From positions 64,001 to 119,346 of the IMG/VR virus record IMGVR_UViG_2645727811_000003: DNA of 55,346 nt. One strand, 5' to 3'. Made by a program: the position numbers and the translations under genes. This DNA is from a virus. Taxonomy: Duplodnaviria; Heunggongvirae; Uroviricota; Caudoviricetes. Positions 36,654-46,800 of the stretch are shown here, piece by piece. The notes beneath the pieces were generated by a model that made no database searches, was not told the origin of the DNA, and worked only from the letters and a program-made list of their open reading frames with translations. How positions within the stretch are numbered: the first letter of the stretch is position 1; each line of letters opens with the position of its first letter.

Positions 36654-36902
36654 ATGCTGAGCAAAAAAGTATATGGGACTATTATGCTTACAGTGTCGCG
36701 TCAAACAACGGCTTCTAGCAAATGTTTAGCAATACTTGATTCATACTATGCCATATCCGATGATCGAGTTGATTTGACTGAGTTGACTCTACTACACAAA
36801 AATGGAAAAGTTTTAGGGACGGTCAAAGTACATAATGTGAAAATTTCTTGGGATGGATTTAAAAAGGGAGAGAACATCATTGGCTCAAATATACACTCAT
36901 GA
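36654..36902 (+). CDS. Hypothetical protein
   Basis: GGGAG RBS supports ATG 36654; TTGACT…TAATAT promoter-like sequence upstream. Confidence 0.65.
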   Translation: MLSKKVYGTIMLTVSRQTTASSKCLAILDSYYAISDDRVDLTELTLLHKNGKVLGTVKVHNVKISWDGFKKGENIIGSNIHS

Positions 36903-39177
36903 ATTTGTGCGAGATTATTTCAAGAAACATGGATGTGAACTTATTTCAGAATTTAAAAACGTTAGGCAGATACTTTCTTACAGATGTGTTTGCGGAGAAA
37001 TAGGAACTACAAATTTTTATTCATTTAGAAACAGCCATCATAAAAAATGCAATAAATGTGTAAGAAAAAAAGCAAAGAAGCCGAATAAACTAGACTTTGA
37101 ATATGTGAAAAAATTTTTTAAAGAGAATAATTGTGAGCTCCTTGAATCCATGTATATTAATAGCTCTACTAAGATGGCTTATATCTGTTCGTGTGGGAAA
37201 AAAGATTATAAGACTTGGAATAAATTTAGAGCAGGACAAAGGTGTAAGGATTGTGCAATAAATCAGAGTGCTGAAAAACAGAGAGCAGATTCTTCATATG
37301 TTGAAAACTTTCTAAAAGAACATGGATTTTCAATAGCCGATGGGAAATATGTAAATACAAATTCAAAAATGTTGCTTATTTGCCAATGTGGAAAACCAAC
37401 TGAACGAACATGGAGTTCAGTTAAACAGAGTCCAAAATGCAACTGTTCAATTCATTACACAAAACCCTTAAAAAGAAAGTTTACAAAAGAGGATCTGATT
37501 AATTTTTATTGGAAATTAAAGAACGATCTTGGAAGATACCCTAGTTTAGAGGATTTAAAGAAAAATCCGTCTTCCCCTTCCCCATCTGTTTACGAACGAA
37601 AGTTTGGGGGATGGGTAAAGTTTTTAGAGAGTATTGGAGTAATGACTAGTGACAGATGGTATGTTGATGACATCGAAACCTTAAAGCGTATGTATGCTGA
37701 CTATTCTTATGAAGAAATAAACAATGCTCTTATTAAGAAAAGGAGTAAAAGCACCATACAGCATAAAGCCAATAGCCTTGGACTGAAAAGATCTTACAAG
37801 GCTAAATTTGGAAAGGAGAAATTCTCAAATGAGTATTTAATAACTTTTTTGAAGAATTTCTACGACAAATACAATCGAACCCCTGTTGCAAAAGATTTTG
37901 TGGGAAATGATTTAAACTATGATACTTTCACTAAACGTTTTGGCTCTTGGAATAATGCGCTAAAAAAAGCTGGTCTACCAATTAATAGAGAACGATCAAA
38001 AAATCTCTCTAATAATGAATTACTTAAAATGAAGGAAATGTATGAAGCAGGAGTTGATATGCAAGATATAGCAAAACACTTTAATTATACACATACTGCG
38101 CCTATTTATTATCATTTGAATAAGATGAATGTTAATCTAACACGTAATAATCGTTGGTCAGAAAAACAAATCCACTATTTGAAAGCTCACTATCCTAACG
38201 CAGAGTGGAAGGATTTACTTAAAAACCTTGCACCTTTTTCAAAAGAGAGTATTACTACAAAGGCTTATAAACTCGGCATAAAAAGAAACTCAAATTTTTA
38301 CACCGAAAAAGAAGAAAAGATTCTTCGAAAATTTTATGGAAAAGTGTCTTTTCATGAACTCCTTAAGATGTTGCCTAATAGAACGGAATCTTCTGTTGTT
38401 TCTAAAGTTAATCATATGGGTTTAAAAATTAGAGAATTTTGGAGCGAAGAAGATATTAACATGCTGAAAAAACATTATCAGACCTCTACTGATGAAGAAT
38501 TATTAAAAATGTTCAAAGATAGATCATGGTCTTCGATTCAAAGTATGGCAACAAAAAATTTGAATCTAAAGAGAACGAAGGAATATTACAAAAATAAAAA
38601 AGAAAAAATTAGAGATCATCTAATCAAAGAACTTATAGAGTACGCTCATGCTTTAGGAAGAACACCTACATCAGTAGAAGTTCAAAAGAACCGAAACCTA
38701 CAAGGAATTTCAACATATATTAGGTATTTTGATGGTTACAGAAATGCTTGTCTAAAAGCAGGTCTTGATCCTAATCAATCTATTTTTGGTAGGTCAATTC
38801 ACTGTATATCATTAAATGGGGATGTATGCCTTTCAAAAAAAGAGAAAGAAATAACCGACTTATTTATAAAAAATAACATAGCGTATGTAAAAGAGGTTCT
38901 TTATAAAGATATACTGGGCAAAAATAATATTCCAAATATAAAACTTGATTGGTTTGTTAACAACAGAGTCATTGTTGAGTATTTCGGAATGACAGATAAA
39001 GATTATTATAAAAAAAGAGCTAATTATAAAATAGAGTTTTGTAAGAAGTATGGCATTCCATTGATTCCGCTGTACCCTGATGATTTAACGAATAACTACA
39101 ACGGCTTAAAAGAAAAATTTAAAACTCATGGAATTAACTTTGGGAATGGAGATGAACAAAATGAAAAAATACGTTAA
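36880..39177 (+). CDS. Large free-standing endonuclease-like protein with repeated DNA-binding modules
   Basis: Three Y.N…C.CG zinc-ribbon repeats, three R.P…F/Y..FG.W…G homing-endonuclease-associated repeats, W(S/T)EE HTH-like repeats, C-terminal S..E…D…VEYFG PD-(D/E)XK-like domain; AAGGGAG RBS supports TTG 36880. Confidence 0.78.
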   Translation: MAQIYTHEFVRDYFKKHGCELISEFKNVRQILSYRCVCGEIGTTNFYSFRNSHHKKCNKCVRKKAKKPNKLDFEYVKKFFKENNCELLESMYINSSTKMAYICSCGKKDYKTWNKFRAGQRCKDCAINQSAEKQRADSSYVENFLKEHGFSIADGKYVNTNSKMLLICQCGKPTERTWSSVKQSPKCNCSIHYTKPLKRKFTKEDLINFYWKLKNDLGRYPSLEDLKKNPSSPSPSVYERKFGGWVKFLESIGVMTSDRWYVDDIETLKRMYADYSYEEINNALIKKRSKSTIQHKANSLGLKRSYKAKFGKEKFSNEYLITFLKNFYDKYNRTPVAKDFVGNDLNYDTFTKRFGSWNNALKKAGLPINRERSKNLSNNELLKMKEMYEAGVDMQDIAKHFNYTHTAPIYYHLNKMNVNLTRNNRWSEKQIHYLKAHYPNAEWKDLLKNLAPFSKESITTKAYKLGIKRNSNFYTEKEEKILRKFYGKVSFHELLKMLPNRTESSVVSKVNHMGLKIREFWSEEDINMLKKHYQTSTDEELLKMFKDRSWSSIQSMATKNLNLKRTKEYYKNKKEKIRDHLIKELIEYAHALGRTPTSVEVQKNRNLQGISTYIRYFDGYRNACLKAGLDPNQSIFGRSIHCISLNGDVCLSKKEKEITDLFIKNNIAYVKEVLYKDILGKNNIPNIKLDWFVNNRVIVEYFGMTDKDYYKKRANYKIEFCKKYGIPLIPLYPDDLTNNYNGLKEKFKTHGINFGNGDEQNEKIR

Positions 39178-39499: not shown

Positions 39500-40891
39500 T
39501 TGAGTCAACAGTTGAAAATTGTAGTTACTCCAGTTGCTGACACCTCCGCTCAATCAGTCGAGCAAATCAACAAACAGCTTAAAGTACTACAATCTAAGTT
39601 AAACTCCCTTCAACTCAAAACGAATATTGATGCTTCTGCTTTAAAAACCCTCAAAGAATTCTCTTCTGCAGTTGAAACATATCAAAAAAATCTCAAGAAT
39701 TACAACCAGACAGTTAAAGAAACACAAACCGTCATTAAGAATGCTGATGGGACAACTGAAAAAATCATTCAGCAGCACAAAAAGAATGGTGAAATACTTC
39801 AGCGAGAAATTAAGACGATTGATAATCGAAATCAAAAGATTCGTCAAGAAACTCAAGAAACAGCAAAATTAACCTCTGAAATTCAAAAGCTTGGACAAGC
39901 TCAAAAGATAATTGAACGTCAAAATGCTCAAGGTATCAAGACAGGCACTACTCACAAAAATCGTGATGGTTTTAAGGATATTACGTACAATCTCGACCAA
40001 AATGGGAATATTAAAAACTCAACCACTGTAACAAATCTTGATCAACAAAGAAAAGCAATCGAACAGCTTAGAGTAAGCTTACAAAGACTAAAAGAGCAAG
40101 GGCAACTGTCTGAAGTCACCCTCTCCTCTCTTGGAAGAAAAATTAATTTAGCTCAGTCTACAGAACAAATTGAAGCACTCAGAGTCAAGCTTAAGACTCT
40201 TGATGACAAATCAGCAGCAGTCGCAAAGACTAAAGAGCTTGAAAGGCAGTTAGAACTATATAGAAGACAAGCACAGGTAAATACTCAGAACCTGCAAAAC
40301 AGATACGGTAGCTCATTGAGCAATGCAAGTAATCAACAGCTTCAACAGTATTTGAATTCAGTTAATCAATTAACTGCAAGGACACCTAATCTAAGAAATC
40401 AGATGGCTAGTCTTAATATGCAGTTTAGGGAAATGTCCTCTAACATTGCTGCTACTACAAGGCAGACAATGGGTTTTGTTGAGCAATTAGGAGTCGCTGC
40501 CGCCCGCATACCGGTGTGGTTTGCTGGTATGACAATGTTCATGGGGCCAATTCGCGGGTTGCAGTCGATAGTTGATCAAGTTATTCAAATTGACACACTT
40601 ATGACTGAAATTCGCAGGGTCATGGATGAGCCTAATTATAAGTTCAATGATATGTTGCAAGAAGCAGTTGAGATGGGAGATCAGCTTTCCAATAAGATTT
40701 CAGATATTCTTCAGATGACAAGTTCATTTGGAAGAATGGGATTTGATGAAGCTGAACTAGGAAGCATTACTAAAACTGCAGAAGTTCTTCAAAACGTATC
40801 GAATCTGTCCGTAGATGAAACGGTCAATACTTTGACAAGTGCAATGTTAAACTTTAATGTTGCCGCACAAGACTCAATTTCAATTGCCGAT
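39500..40891 (+). CDS. cwlP: Tape measure protein, exon 1
   Basis: TTG start with AAAGGA RBS; coiled coil and TMP repeat region; ends …SIAD at an intron 5' site. Confidence 0.92.
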
Positions 40892-41166
40892 TAATTATAG
40901 TCGCCTTATACAGTAATGTATAAGTGTAAACCCAGTGAACCCTATTGCTCAGGGGTGTGTCCTCTTCTAAGGATGCTAACGGTGGAACTCTAAGGGAGAA
41001 ATCCTATGACAATACCGTGCCAAGCCTATTTTAGGAAGGTGTAACGACTAACTTTTGTGGTGTAGAGCAGATTTTGAGCTACTGTTCGAAGCGCTGGGCA
41101 TCCCAATGGGATGAAGATATAGTCTAGTCCCCTACTTAAGTATCGGGAAACCGAGGGTATTATTCG
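40892..41166 (+). mobile_element. Group I intron 1 (275 nt, ORF-less)
   Basis: Exon ends in U; P1 CGAU/GUCG with U.G pair; P3 CCCAGTG/CGCTGGG; GTAACGACTA and AAGATATAGTC (P7); terminal G; splicing gives IAD|KLNEVDNN. Confidence 0.95.
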
Positions 41167-41548
41167 AAATTAAATGAAGTCGACAACAACTATGCGGTTA
41201 CAACACAAGACCTGGCTAACTCCATAAGGAAGGCTGGCGCGACCGCTTCAACCTTCTCAGTGGATTTAAACGATTTAATCGGATATACCACTGCAGTGGC
41301 CAGTACCACTCGTGAATCCGGCAATATAGTGGGAAATGCATTAAAAACAATCTTCGCAAGGATCGGAAACAATGAAAGTTCTATAAAAGCTTTAGATCAA
41401 ATTGGGATCTCCGTCAAAAAAGCTGGAGGAGAAGCCAAAAGTTCAAGTGAACTAATCGAAGAGGTTGCCGATAAATGGAATTCATTAAGCGATGCTCAAA
41501 AACAAAACACAAGTATTGGTGTAGCAGGTATTTATCAGCTTTCTCGAT
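41167..41548 (+). CDS. cwlP: Tape measure protein, exon 2
   Basis: KLNEVDNNYAVTT…GIYQLSR continues the TMP repeat region. Confidence 0.92.
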
Positions 41549-41881
41549 TAATCAATAGTCGCCTAGTTAAGTAATTAGCTAGTGAAAAGTCAGTGAACCT
41601 AATTTAGGGTGTAATGTGATCGCTTAGATTTAAGTAGGAAATGACTTATTAATCATATTGCTAACAGGGAAAATCTAAGTCAGAGTTGATATGATGACCC
41701 TGTGCCAAGTATTTGCATCATGCTGCGAAGCACATGCAAATGAAGGTGCAACGACCATCCCTTTTGGGAGTAGTTTGCAGGTGAAATTCCTGCTTACGAA
41801 GCGCTGGCTGCCCTTTAGTTAAAAAAGAGGCAAAGATATGGTCTACTCCGTTTAAATATTCCGAAAGGAACGGTACAAAGG
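41549..41881 (+). mobile_element. Group I intron 2 (333 nt, ORF-less)
   Basis: Same CGAU|UAAU…UAGUCG P1; P3 GTCAGTG/CGCTGGC; GCAACGACCA and AAGATATGGTC (P7); terminal G; splicing gives SR-T|TT(F)-NALMNNF. Confidence 0.95.
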
Positions 41882-44800
41882 TTAACGCGTTAATGAACAA
41901 CTTCTCGATTGCCCAGGATTCGGCAACTACGGCTGCGGAATCAACCGGAAGCGCATGGAAAGAACAGGAAAAATATTCAGAAAGTCTCCAGGCAAGAATA
42001 AATCGATTATCAAACGCGTGGACAGAATTGAGTTTAGCCTCTGGGGATGCAGTAGTTTCAGATGGCATAGTTGCGCTTACAGAAACTCTAAAAGACGTTG
42101 TTCAAATCGGAACAGGTATAACAAAAACAATCGGACTCCTTCCTCAAGTTTTTGGCATTGCAACTACTGCGGTATTACTCTTTAACGCTTCACTTAGAAC
42201 CGGAGCCATAGCTAATGGGAACTTATTCTTAAGACTGCTTAACAACTTCCCTACATCGTTAACTGCCTTTTCCTCTTCCATGACTGGAGCAGCAATAAGA
42301 GCACGTTTTTTAAATATTACGTTAGCTACATTAAAAACAACCGCTCGAACAACAATGGCTTTTCTTGCAGGTGCTGTACTGCCTATGGCGGGGTTCATGG
42401 CTTTAGGCTTCGTAATCGAAAAACTTGTCTCTGCTTTTTCTGATGCTAAACAAGAACAAGAAAAGCTTGCAGAGTCACAAAAGAAAAGTGTTGAAGCAAT
42501 AACCACAAATAAAGAGCAGACAGATCAGTTAATCCAAAAATATAAAGAGCTGCAAAAAGCAAAAGATAACGGTTCCCTCTCCCCCGACAAGGAGCAAGAA
42601 TATCTACAGGTCACGCAACAATTAGCACAAATGTTCCCTAATTTGATTTCTGGCTATGACTCCCAAGGTAATGCCATCATTAAAAATAATGAAGCGTTAG
42701 AAGATGCCATAAAATACACCAAAGAATTAGCCGAATTAAACAAAAAAGACATTCAAACTGGTGCAAATAGCAACTTTAAAGAAACTCTGAGTGATATCAG
42801 TAATCTGACTGATGAAATGAAAGAGTATCAAAAAGTTGCAGACCATTATAAAAATAATGATCGGCCATTCTGGGATATCTTCGACAGCGACAGTGATTAT
42901 AAAAATTTTGGGATTAAAGCTGAACAACAAGCTCTTCAAGTCAATCAGAAGTTATCTAGTTCTCAAGCTAAACTTAGAGACCAGGTGCTGCAAACTGTTG
43001 ACGCTTATAACTCCCTTAAAATCAACCCTCAGTTAACCAAAGATATTAACGAAGCCTTCAATAAAATTGACTTTAGTAAGATGACTTCTGATGAATTAGA
43101 GTCGTTTTCCATTAATGTTTCAAAATACATGGATGACATTCAGAAAGCATTAGAATCAGGAAATAAAGTTGATTTCTCAAGAGCATCTCAAGCACTTCAG
43201 AATTTAATTAATCAACAAATCAAAGGTTCTGATGAAGCTGACAAACTTTCCTTATCATATGATGACCTAAAGAATGCTATAGACTCTACAAAAAATGCTG
43301 CTGATTCTGCAAAGGTCACTTGGGATGAAAATGGTGAAGGTGTAAACGAATTAACAGGAGAAGTTGAAGATTTAAGTCAAAAGCTCAAGGATGCAAAAGG
43401 CGATCTAGAGGCAATAAAAGCTGTAATGGACGATTTGGTGGCTTCTCAGCAAACAGAACTAGCTATTTCTGCCCTTCAAAATGAAGCATATGATTCTTTT
43501 GCTGACTCCATCTCCCCTCTCAATGAACTTCTTGAGAAAATGGCTGAAGGAAAAAGTATCTCAGCTGCTGAAGCAATGAAACTGGTTCAAAAAGAAAAAG
43601 ACTTGGCTGGAGCTATTACTGTTGAAAACGGCGTAGTTAAATTAAACCGAGATGCAATCATAAAACTACGTGATGCGAAACTTAAAGCATACAACGACAT
43701 GCAAAAGTCAGTTAAACAGGATTTAATCAACCAGGCAAACGCAACAGTAAAGAAAATAAAGAACTATGGTTTAGAGGTCAAATCAATCCAGACTGTTGCC
43801 GATGCGCAAGCCAACCTTTCCAAAATGAGAAAACAAGTAGACACTTTGATGGAAAGTGGCAATATCCAGATGGCAATGCCAATCATTAAAGAAATAAACG
43901 AGTTGAGCGACGTCACTGGACAGTTAGAAGATCTGGATAAAATGGCTGAATTGGCCAACTCATCTTTAAATGAAGTTGGTACGTCCCTTGAGAAATATTC
44001 TGATGAACAAGAGAAAGCCAGCAAAGAAACTGAGAAATCCAAATACGTCATTGATAAATATAAAGAAGCCCTTGAAAAAGTAAATGCAGAAATTGAGAAA
44101 TACAACAAGCAAACCAATGATTATCCTAAATGGTCACAAAAATACAGAGATGCAATCAATAAGGAAATCAAGGCATTAGAGCGTAAGAAAAAGCTAATGC
44201 AAGATCAGATTAAACTGCTGAAACAGCAAATTAAATCTGGTTATATTCCTCAAACTGGACTTGTTACCTCCGCTTCCTCTTCTGGTTCTTCATCAGGTTC
44301 ATATTCTTCTGGAGGATCGTATTCTGGTAAATATTCTTCTTACATTAATGCTGCGGCAAGTAAATATGGTGTTGATCCTGCCCTAATCGCGGCAATTATT
44401 AAACAAGAATCAAACTTCAATGTCAAAGCTCGTTCTGGCGCTGGAGCAATGGGCTTAATGCAACTCATGCCTGGTACTGCAAAAAGTCTCGGCGTAACAA
44501 ATGCATATGATCCATACCAAAACATTATGGGCGGTACAAAATATATTTCTCAGATGCTTAACAAGTTTGGCGGAAACATCGAGAAAGCTTTAGCTGCTTA
44601 CAACGCGGGGCCAGGAAACGTAATTAAATATGGTGGTACCCCTCCTTTTAAAGAAACGCAAAATTATGTTAAGAAAGTACTCTCCAACTACAATAAGAGC
44701 TTATCTACAGCCACCTCCAAGATCGCAAATTATTACACGAGCAGCAATGGATTTAGAGTAAGTTCAAAGTTTGGAGCGCAAGAAAGTGGTCTCCGCTCCT

Positions 44801-46800
44801 CCCCTCACAAAGGAACAGACTTCGCAGCCAAAGCTGGAACCCCTGTAAAAGCATTGAAAGCTGGTAAAGTCATAACCGCTACCTATTCAAAAACAGCAGG
44901 TAACTGGGTTGTCATTCAACAGGATGATGGAACAGTTGCAAAATATATGCACATGCAAAACGGCCTTAAAGTTAAGAAAGGTGATGTTGTATCTGCTGGC
45001 CAAACAATAGGTAAAGTAGGAAGCACTGGACACTCAACGGGAAACCACCTCCACCTACAAATTGAGCAAAATGGCAAACCAATTGACCCAGAAAAGTATA
45101 TGCAGGGCTTAACCTCAGATCTTTCTCAGTCTGAAGCTGAAAGACAACAAGCCCTTTCACAGGCAAAATCGGATTTAATCGGTTTGCAAGGTGATTTAGA
45201 TGCAGTTAATGATCAAATTCAAGACCTGCAATACGAATTGGTTCAATCCAAGCTTGATGAATTTGATAAACGGAAATCTGATCTAGAAGTCAAAATTGCT
45301 AAAAATGAGTCTTTAGCCAAACGTTACCTTTCTGACAGCAAGGAATTTCGCAAATATACAAATGAGCAGAAGAAAGCTGTTGATGAGCAACGCAAAATTC
45401 AACAGCAAAAAATTAACTGGATCAACAAAGAGTTAAAAACAAATAAAAAACTTAACTATGCTCAACGCGATCAATTAAGAGAAGAGCTGAAACAGGCTAA
45501 ATTAGATCTTATCTCCTTACAAGATCAAGTCAGAGAGCTCCAAGGGGAACTGATTCAGTCACAGGTTGACCAGACACTCAATAATATTGAGAAATCTGTT
45601 AAGAAAACTGAATCCAAACTTAAAGATGTTGATATCAAAATTCAAATGACTGAAGATGACAATCAAAAAGTCAAGTACTACAGTCAGCAAGTAAAATTGA
45701 TTCAACAGCAACAAGCTGAAGCAAAAAAGTACATTAAGCAACTTGAAGCACAGAAAAAGGCAGCTAAAGGTTTCCCTGATATCCAGAAACAAATCACAGA
45801 GGAAATTGAAAACTGGAAGGATAAACAGAAGGATTACAACCTAGAGCTTTATAACACCAAGAAGTCCATTAAAGATATCTATAAATCACTCGCAGATGAA
45901 GTTGTTTCAATTTATAAAGAAATGTACGAAAAAATGCGGGATATTGAGCTGGAAGCACATCGAAAAGCAACTCAAGATATAATCGATGAAATTGATAAAG
46001 AAGATGACGAAGCTAAGTTCCAGAAATCACTTAAAGAAAAACAAGATGCCATTCAAGAAACAAAAGACAAGATAAACAAACTGTCTCTCGATGATTCAGA
46101 TGAAGCAAAAGCAAAACTAAAAGATTTAGATAAGCAGCTCCAAGAACAGCAACAAGATCTTGATGAATTTTTAAAGGATCGTGAAAATTCCAAACGTAAA
46201 GAAGCATTACAGGATCAACTTGAAAAAGATGAGAAATCAATAAACACCAAGTATGATGATCTTGTCAACGACGAAAGAGCATTCAAAAAGCTTGAGGATA
46301 AGTTGATGGATGGAAAGATTACCGATATCGCCAAACAGCTCAATGAGTTTTCAAAGTTCATTAACAGCAATATGGAGTCTATTGGTAAGAGTATCTCCAA
46401 CAATCTAATTGATAAGCTTAAAGAAGCCTCCAAAGCTTTAAATGTTGTAGTCGCTGGAAACACCACAGGTAAGAAAGTTGCCTCTTTTGATGTGGGTGGC
46501 TATACAGGAACATGGGGCAGTTCGGGAAGACTTGCAATGCTCCATGAGCAAGAACTTGTTTTAAATAAAGCTGATACAAGCAATGTCTTGAAAATTGTTG
46601 AGCTCACCCGAAACATTTTTGGAGATATCCAAACAAAAGCTGCAATCCCTTCCCCTAATGCTACATCTAATCAAACGACAAGTAACCAAACATTTAATTT
46701 TAACTTTAATGTAGATAAGATGACTGGCTCTAAAGATGATGCAAATAAATTCTTAGGAGAAGCATTTAACATTGTATCAGCTAGAGGGGTTAAAATTTAG
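41882..46800 (+). CDS. cwlP: Tape measure protein, exon 3, with SLT lytic transglycosylase and M23 peptidase domains
   Basis: IKQESNF…GLMQLMP (SLT); HKGTD, YMHM, STGNHLH (M23); spliced product 2230 aa. Confidence 0.95.

Follow-up and report, generated by a model that had tools for sequence, protein, structure and literature searches.

The tape-measure protein (TMP) gene of an SPbeta-type provirus is truly split by two ORF-less group I introns, as our sequence analysis confirms. The window, that is, the whole stretch of 55,346 nt analysed here, represents the right-hand 55 kb of a 119-kb IMG/VR provirus rated 93% complete, whose closest relative at the species level is a Bacillus glycinifermentans GO-13 prophage. 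We consider it likely that the two introns, I1 and I2, were acquired separately and have been spreading as DNA. The gene is laid out as follows:

39500..40891, + strand: TMP exon 1, 464 codons, ending ...ATT GCC GAT
40892..41166, + strand: intron I1, group I, 275 nt, ORF-less, phase 0
41167..41548, + strand: TMP exon 2, 382 nt, ending ...CTCGAT
41549..41881, + strand: intron I2, group I, 333 nt, ORF-less, phase 1 (T·TT, Phe)
41882..46800, + strand: TMP exon 3, stop codon included

The ORF list divides the gene into three pieces in the same direction (39500-40894, an internal one ending at 41574, and 41893-46800). Removal of 40892-41166 and 41549-41881, as proposed in the initial annotation, joins 39500-40891, 41167-41548 and 41882-46800 into one frame of 6693 nt and 2230 aa with a single terminal stop. 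The spliced product shares 62% identity with SPbeta YomI and 68% with the phi3T TMP, both of which are intron-less, and in alignment with these two proteins both joints (IAD·KLNEV and SRF·NALM, the dot marking the joint) are free of gaps, reading SISIAD·KLNEVDNNYAVTT and GIYQLSRF·NA(L/M)MNNFSI. All SPbeta-type phages of the phage collection match the TMP region in three pieces, with a phage span 608 nt below the query span (608 = 275 + 333). Shifting either boundary by one base causes the encoded residue to depart from its homologues and breaks the rule of U(-1) and a terminal G, the latter lying at 41166 in I1 and at 41881 in I2. The first codon of I1 is an in-frame TAA; I2 splits a Phe codon between its bases 1 and 2, and the exon 2 frame meets a stop eight codons into this intron (41572-41574). 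Within the TMP domain, conservation is greatest in exon 2, and the SLT transglycosylase and M23 peptidase domains sit in exon 3.

Both inserts match the group I model RF00028 over its full length, carry covarying P1-P9 helices and contain no + strand ORF longer than 43 aa, in agreement with their earlier description as ORF-less group I introns. Each follows a CGAT exon end and begins with TAAT...TAGTCGCC, a likeness of the 5' ends that is present just as first described. P1 is formed in I1 by exon positions 40888-40891 with 40892-40893 paired to 40898-40903, and in I2 by exon positions 41545-41548 paired to the guide at 41558-41561, with the exon end CGAU pairing with the guide GUCG in both introns. 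P7 joins 41046-41050 to 41120-41124 in I1 (GACTA/TAGTC) and 41753-41757 to 41839-41843 in I2 (GACCA/TGGTC), and the compensatory nature of these pairs, already pointed out, comes down to a U-A in I1 against a C-G in I2. At the gathering score of 50 bits, Rfam returned no match in the whole window. A permissive RF00028 search, the kind of model search that the initial annotation had suggested, recovers both inserts over the full model length, though below the gathering score: 45.7 bits (E 4.9e-10) for I1 and 35.1 bits (E 7.3e-07) for I2, the E-values being computed on a 1.6-kb search. Given such E-values over the full model, we take the cut-off to be conservative here rather than the fold to be absent. 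The expectation that automated annotation would miss such introns is thus borne out by the blank Rfam result, and also by the homologues in Geobacillus virus E3 and phi3T, which are annotated as split CDSs.

Covariation was assessed on an alignment of I1, I2, their counterparts in L009, GO-13 and L075, the E3 TMP intron, the intron of the Psychrobacillus phage Perkons and half of the phi3T yonO intron; the endonuclease-bearing intron of Enterococcus phage EH93P1 was left out of pair counting because its 5' half misaligned. RNAalifold recovered P1, P2, a long-range P3, P4, P5, P6, P8 and P9 together with a hairpin after P7, and this structure, before P7 was added, contains compensatory changes in 29 of 49 pairs. 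With the P7 pseudoknot included, pairing extends to 98.7% of cells (32-42% in slid controls), compensatory change affects 30 of 54 pairs against 4-7 in the controls, and none of 500 shuffles equalled the observed pairing values, a contrast that is somewhat inflated by the derivation of the structure from the same sequences. The U.G pair at the splice site in P1 is invariant in all eight family members, and single-sequence folds yield the same helices (z = -2.6 for I1 and -3.7 for I2). The 5' strand of P3 is CAGUG, with its partner CGCUG immediately before P8, and hairpins are present between P7 and P3' in both introns. Two further hairpins separate CAGUG from J3/4-P4, and the second of them is greatly enlarged in I2. 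We know of no such double hairpin in the td or Twort introns, and because the arrangement is unusual for introns of this type, helix names around P3-J3/4 are provisional. An alternative P3 (GGAUGC/GCAUCC in I1, beside J3/4) was considered and dropped, since the sequences of I2, yonO and EH93P1 do not allow it, whereas CAGUG/CGCUG shows covariation in every member. From these features we infer that I1 and I2 are spliced from the TMP transcript: each would fold into a P1-P9 core, the guide GUCG would pair with the exon end CGAU to place a U.G wobble at the 5' splice site, and self-excision at the terminal G would restore the TMP frame.

A survey of SPbeta-like TMP genes, which had been recommended at the outset, identified 93 loci bearing exon 2, mostly intron-less. 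Both I1 and I2 are present in L009, L010, L011/L012 (= GO-13, L089) and L074, and all six intron-bearing alleles that we found have both; the TMP gene of L075 has three introns, with an intron of a second, compact family lying between I1 and I2. Two exon-2-bearing records stand apart by their source, L092 (a Streptomyces sp. NPDC058103 contig) and L093 (a Candidatus Paracaedibacteraceae MAG contig), where an SPbeta-type TMP has an exon 2 87% identical to that of the window; these are probably Bacillus or phage contamination of the respective assemblies. Further introns and intron sites in the TMP gene are:

18 nt after the I1 site: TMP intron site, occupied in E3 and L196
L004:3979-4282 (Geobacillus virus E3, NC_029073.1): E3 TMP intron, 304 nt, after NEVD
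L099:2200-2453 (Bacillus paralicheniformis KJ-16): TMP intron near codon 500, after CTGGGAT, RF00028 92.9 bits, 3' end provisional
After G520: compact second-family TMP intron, L075:~2287-2500, with L096 and L078-L084 at the same site
15 nt before the I2 site: TMP intron site, occupied in L076
Exactly at the I2 site: TMP intron site, occupied in L073 by a second-family intron with a 390-aa ORF

In E3, GP42 (N-terminal) and GP43 (C-terminal) are one TMP gene split by an intron related to I1. The L099 intron belongs to another lineage than I1 and I2. Members of the compact family measure ~215-225 nt, have a P7 of GACUG/CAGUC and end in GTAACAGAAT(T/C)G; the intron at G520, which RF00028 does not match even at E <= 1, shows 92% identity between hosts that have a protein-level exon identity of 54-64%. 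Long forms of this family (L100, L101, L073 and L076) carry ORFs of 296-390 aa, one of which has weak matches to the DUF559/MTES_1575 nucleases. In the SPbeta-like TMP core, a stretch of about 130 codons thus has six or more insertion sites, occupied by at least two intron families.

Comparison of intron-bearing alleles indicates how I2 may have travelled. Nucleotide identity between the GO-13 allele and the window is 83% in exon 1, 87.6% in I1, 95% in exon 2, 98.8% in I2 and 71% in exon 3; for the L074 allele the corresponding values are 91%, 94.9%, 99.5%, 100% and 91%. The copies of I2 in L009, L010 and L074 are 100% identical to that of the window. In 150-nt windows, identity peaks on I2, dropping gradually upstream and sharply downstream, and the synonymous difference from GO-13 amounts to 0.59, 0.21 and 0.72 in exons 1, 2 and 3, respectively, with a difference of 0.012 within I2. 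Overall, I2 retains 98.8-100% identity in alleles that differ at 24-72% of their flanking synonymous sites. Such a peak over diverged flanks points to a recent DNA-level transfer, or homing, of I2 with co-conversion of the adjoining exon. Reverse splicing leaves no co-conversion tract (as summarised in PMC2504315), and the steep peak fits gene conversion at the DNA level rather than the intragenic spread by reverse splicing that had been put forward for these introns.

An additional element upstream of the TMP gene may bear on the mobility of I2:

36853..39177, + strand: gene for a 774-aa protein, free-standing and separate from both introns, with three homing-endonuclease-associated repeats

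Between the end of this gene and the TMP start lie 323 nt; the I1 site is 1.7 kb away from it and the I2 site 2.4 kb. The gene product matches Pfam HNH_repeat (2.8e-36) and PHROG HNH/endonuclease families. Over residues 397-745 it shares 44% identity (E 7e-87) with the ORF of the L076 TMP intron (L076:1040-2164), an intron inserted 15 nt upstream of the I2 site, and this likeness ties the 774-aa gene to the same TMP target region. As a tentative addition to the explanation that we favour, collaborative or trans homing could be envisaged, in which the 774-aa protein cuts intron-less TMP genes near the I2 site. Such cutting might then drive the ORF-less intron, and sometimes the 774-aa gene as well, into intron-less alleles, a step that we hold to be equally doubtful. 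The pathway itself is established in T4 and cyanophages (PMC2790892); the proximity of the HNH_repeat modules to the TMP start, the kinship of the C-terminal 350 aa with an intron-encoded ORF so close to the I2 site, and the trough in synonymous difference that accompanies the identity peak on I2 are all in keeping with it. However, neither Pfam nor a PDB sequence search identified a nuclease catalytic domain in the C-terminus of the 774-aa protein, and the L076 intron belongs to a different intron family. Moreover, the gene occurs in the window, in L009 and in L010 only; the whole GO-13 genome lacks it, as do the records of L074 and L075, leaving gene and introns together in just three of the six intron-bearing relatives. 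If true, this would be a case of collaborative homing in a temperate Firmicute phage.

The provirus harbours two more group I introns beyond the TMP gene:

G000:C1:12119-13130 (= L106:1620-2631), outside the window, - strand: fourth intron of the same family, 1012 nt, in a DnaE-like DNA polymerase gene
G000:C1:2582-2794 (L001:1501-1713), - strand: ORF-less intron in an nrdE-like gene downstream of nrdI, RF00028 96.5 bits

The DnaE-gene intron follows TTTGGGT, carries in its P8 loop a gene for a 256-aa HNH_3/NUMOD4/NUMOD1 (I-HmuI-like) protein, and occurs also in the L009 provirus; it was not found in GO-13. It is a mosaic: over ~77 nt of P4-P6 it departs from I1 at a single position, and its P7.1/7.2 segment is 84% identical to that of I2. 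The nrdE-like gene intron has only a distant relationship to I1 and I2; the exon next to it contains a LAGLIDADG intein. One could speculate, with little confidence, that the TMP core is a battleground in which a domesticated TMP-intron endonuclease encoded upstream keeps I2 mobile, and in which gene conversion transfers segments between introns of one genome.

It had also been suggested that the need for two splicing events could time or limit tail assembly and thereby serve as a control point for virion production. An unspliced transcript would indeed stop at the first codon of I1, or eight codons into I2. We nevertheless find such a regulatory checkpoint unlikely: most close relatives, among them SPbeta, phi3T and most of the 93 exon-2 loci, do without any intron, and the presence pattern, the mosaicism and the co-conversion are those of selfish elements.

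The initial annotation regarded I1 and I2 as sister copies, one having reverse-spliced into a second P1-compatible CGAT site of the same gene, which we now consider very unlikely. What the two share is the CGAT exon end, the 5' end described above and 71% identity within the short P1-P2 segment. Furthermore, members of the family occupy many sites that have in common only the 4-6 nt matched by P1, and for this reason ectopic moves must have happened somewhere in the family. However, the overall identity of I1 and I2 (60-62%) is below that which either shows to introns of other genes and phages. For I1, identity is 72-74% to the E3 TMP intron, 70% to the terminase (terL) intron of EH93P1 and 75% to the DnaE-gene intron of its own provirus, whereas I2 is 70-72% identical to the yonO intron of phi3T, Goe11, SPR and others, reaching 82% in the P7-P3' segment. 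The copies examined for the latter are:

L006:2289-2688 (phi3T, KY030782.1) and L007:1398-2688 (SPbetaL5): yonO intron, group I, in an RNA-polymerase gene

This intron is unannotated, the records giving the split yonO gene as two or three separate CDSs; the intron carries a 300-aa GIY-YIG/NUMOD3 gene in SPbetaL5 and a remnant of it in phi3T, and is cleanly ORF-less in L137 and L163. Our literature search found nothing relevant on an intron in either E3 or yonO.

I2, the yonO intron and the Perkons intron, which belongs among the I2 relatives, have in common a large post-P3 domain, a P6 extension and a GGUGAAAUUCC element, all absent from I1, and they form a clade with support of 94/98 in a 10-row maximum-likelihood tree. 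This small tree was used as an unrooted split only, rooting on the L099 intron being a long-branch artefact. A clade of I1 and I2 is rejected by the AU test (delta lnL 42-47 across trees), both with 10 rows (delta lnL 47, p = 4e-6) and with 39 rows in which all orthologues were held together (delta lnL 42, p = 0.0026), the larger tree drawing its added relatives from an IMG/VR core-motif scan that returned at least 114 stretches and is a sample rather than a census. The intron phylogeny, by which the duplication idea was to be judged, therefore places I1 and I2 in different clades. Their histories within the gene differ as well, I1 having diverged with its host gene (87.6% in GO-13) and I2 being near-identical across alleles. 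Nor does the shared CGAT/TAGTCG mark a duplication, because it is a P1 trait found across the family: the yonO intron follows an exon ending ...ATCGAT and starts with TAAATTTATAGTCGCG, and the L196 TMP intron follows GTCGAT and has the same guide as I1 and I2, while relatives with other guides are preceded by exons ending in GGAT or GGGT. An intron with the guide GUCG can splice only after CGAU, however it arrived.

The nearest relatives of each intron illustrate this separation. The yonO intron resembles I2 in its CGAT exon end, TAGTCG guide, P7 (GACCA/TGGTC) and extra post-P3 domain, and differs in its location in an RNA-polymerase gene, its phase 0 and the GIY-YIG/NUMOD3 gene of the SPbetaL5 copy. 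The E3 TMP intron, the nearest relative of I1 outside its orthologues, is likewise ORF-less and interrupts the same conserved domain of the same gene, but its site lies 18 nt (6 codons) further downstream and follows GTGGAT; it has the guide GUCC and retains the P6 extension that I1 lacks. I1 and I2 would accordingly be cousins from different branches of one large family and not copies of each other, and since their kin lie on different branches we consider them two separate acquisitions. Because the family is mosaic, a single tree is an imperfect description of intron history.

The favoured explanation, that of separate acquisition and spread as DNA, can be set out as follows. I1 and I2 would be group I introns of the phage td/Twort-like (IA) type that interrupt a yomI-homologous TMP gene. 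The branch of I1 would comprise the Geobacillus E3 TMP intron and the GIY-YIG-bearing Enterococcus phage terminase intron, and that of I2 the yonO introns of phi3T-like SPbeta phages, one of which carries a GIY-YIG gene. In these relatives, GIY-YIG/NUMOD3 genes sit in the same P5 loop (300 aa in SPbetaL5 yonO, 201 aa in EH93P1 terL), the flanks of which are almost unchanged in I1, so both TMP introns can be seen as versions without the endonuclease gene. Each would have been acquired separately and would have spread between phage genomes as DNA, by recombination or by homing, with the flanking exon sequence co-converted; I2 would be the most recent to spread, possibly aided in trans by an endonuclease.

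Selection on the exons argues for a functional gene. Between the window and the GO-13 allele, each of which has both introns, dS is 1.18 and dN/dS 0.044 in exon 1, dS is 0.24 and dN/dS 0.014 in exon 2, and in exon 3 dS is ~2.5 (saturated) and dN/dS 0.083 (range 0.03-0.24); no internal stop occurs in any TMP exon of this comparison. As the exons are under strong purifying selection, the TMP gene is in use, and a TMP gene broken by non-splicing inserts would not stay conserved in this way. That the inserts are dead relics and the TMP gene a pseudogene of a decaying prophage, as the RF00028 scores below the cut-off might be taken to suggest, is hardly credible when all three exons of the intron-bearing alleles remain in frame under strong purifying selection despite saturated synonymous change, the helices keep their pairing through compensatory changes and the provirus is rated 93% complete.

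The case has practical consequences for annotation: an essential tail gene would be recorded as three fragments or a pseudogene, and the default Rfam cut-off misses both introns. The same gap exists in public records for yonO of phi3T-like phages and for the Geobacillus E3 TMP. Beyond annotation, the TMP genes form a natural series in which the same gene has none, one, two or three introns at six or more sites and from two intron families. This series is suited to three questions, namely the mobility of ORF-less introns, the limits that P1 sets on landing sites, and recombination between introns of the same genome.

With respect to known introns, the core motifs of I1 and I2 (P4, P6, J6/7-P7 and J8/7-P7') resemble what we take to be those of the T4 td and Twort orf142 introns (IA2), and the hairpin domain between P7 and P3' presumably also has its equivalent there. 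Unlike td and orf142, I1 and I2 have two extra P3-J3/4 hairpins and are without an endonuclease gene. In the SPbeta lineage, to our knowledge, only nrd introns have been described. Spliced introns in tail genes are on record from mycobacteriophages (PMC3706429). The situation of I2 recalls the trans homing of the T4 nrdB intron by mobE (PMC2790892), in that an endonuclease-less intron lies beside a free-standing homing-endonuclease-like gene and identity gradients around the intron resemble co-conversion; unlike mobE/nrdB, the candidate 774-aa gene is missing in half of the intron-bearing relatives. The closest precedent is found in the TMP genes of B. cereus-group prophages, where group I introns, nearly all of them endonuclease-less, occur at three sites (Tourasse and Kolsto 2008, PMC2504315), which bears out the earlier remark that TMP introns are known from other Bacillus prophages. 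Some of those strains have two introns per TMP gene; kindred introns were found at more than one site, with P1 adapted, and one site can be occupied by different introns (PMC2504315). Like TMP-IVS1, IVS2 and IVS3 of that study, the introns described here are mostly ORF-less, probably of IA type and distributed over several TMP sites, with some relatives carrying GIY-YIG or HNH genes. They differ in that the phages concerned were of a lambda01-like lineage there and are SPbeta-like here, and in that IVS1 and IVS2 are 80% identical with a different P1, whereas I1 and I2 are ~60% identical with the same guide. The arrangement of several introns in one TMP gene was thus already known in Bacillus prophages, and the present case, which involves no new kind of element, adds the SPbeta family to a pattern reported from the B. 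cereus group in 2008.
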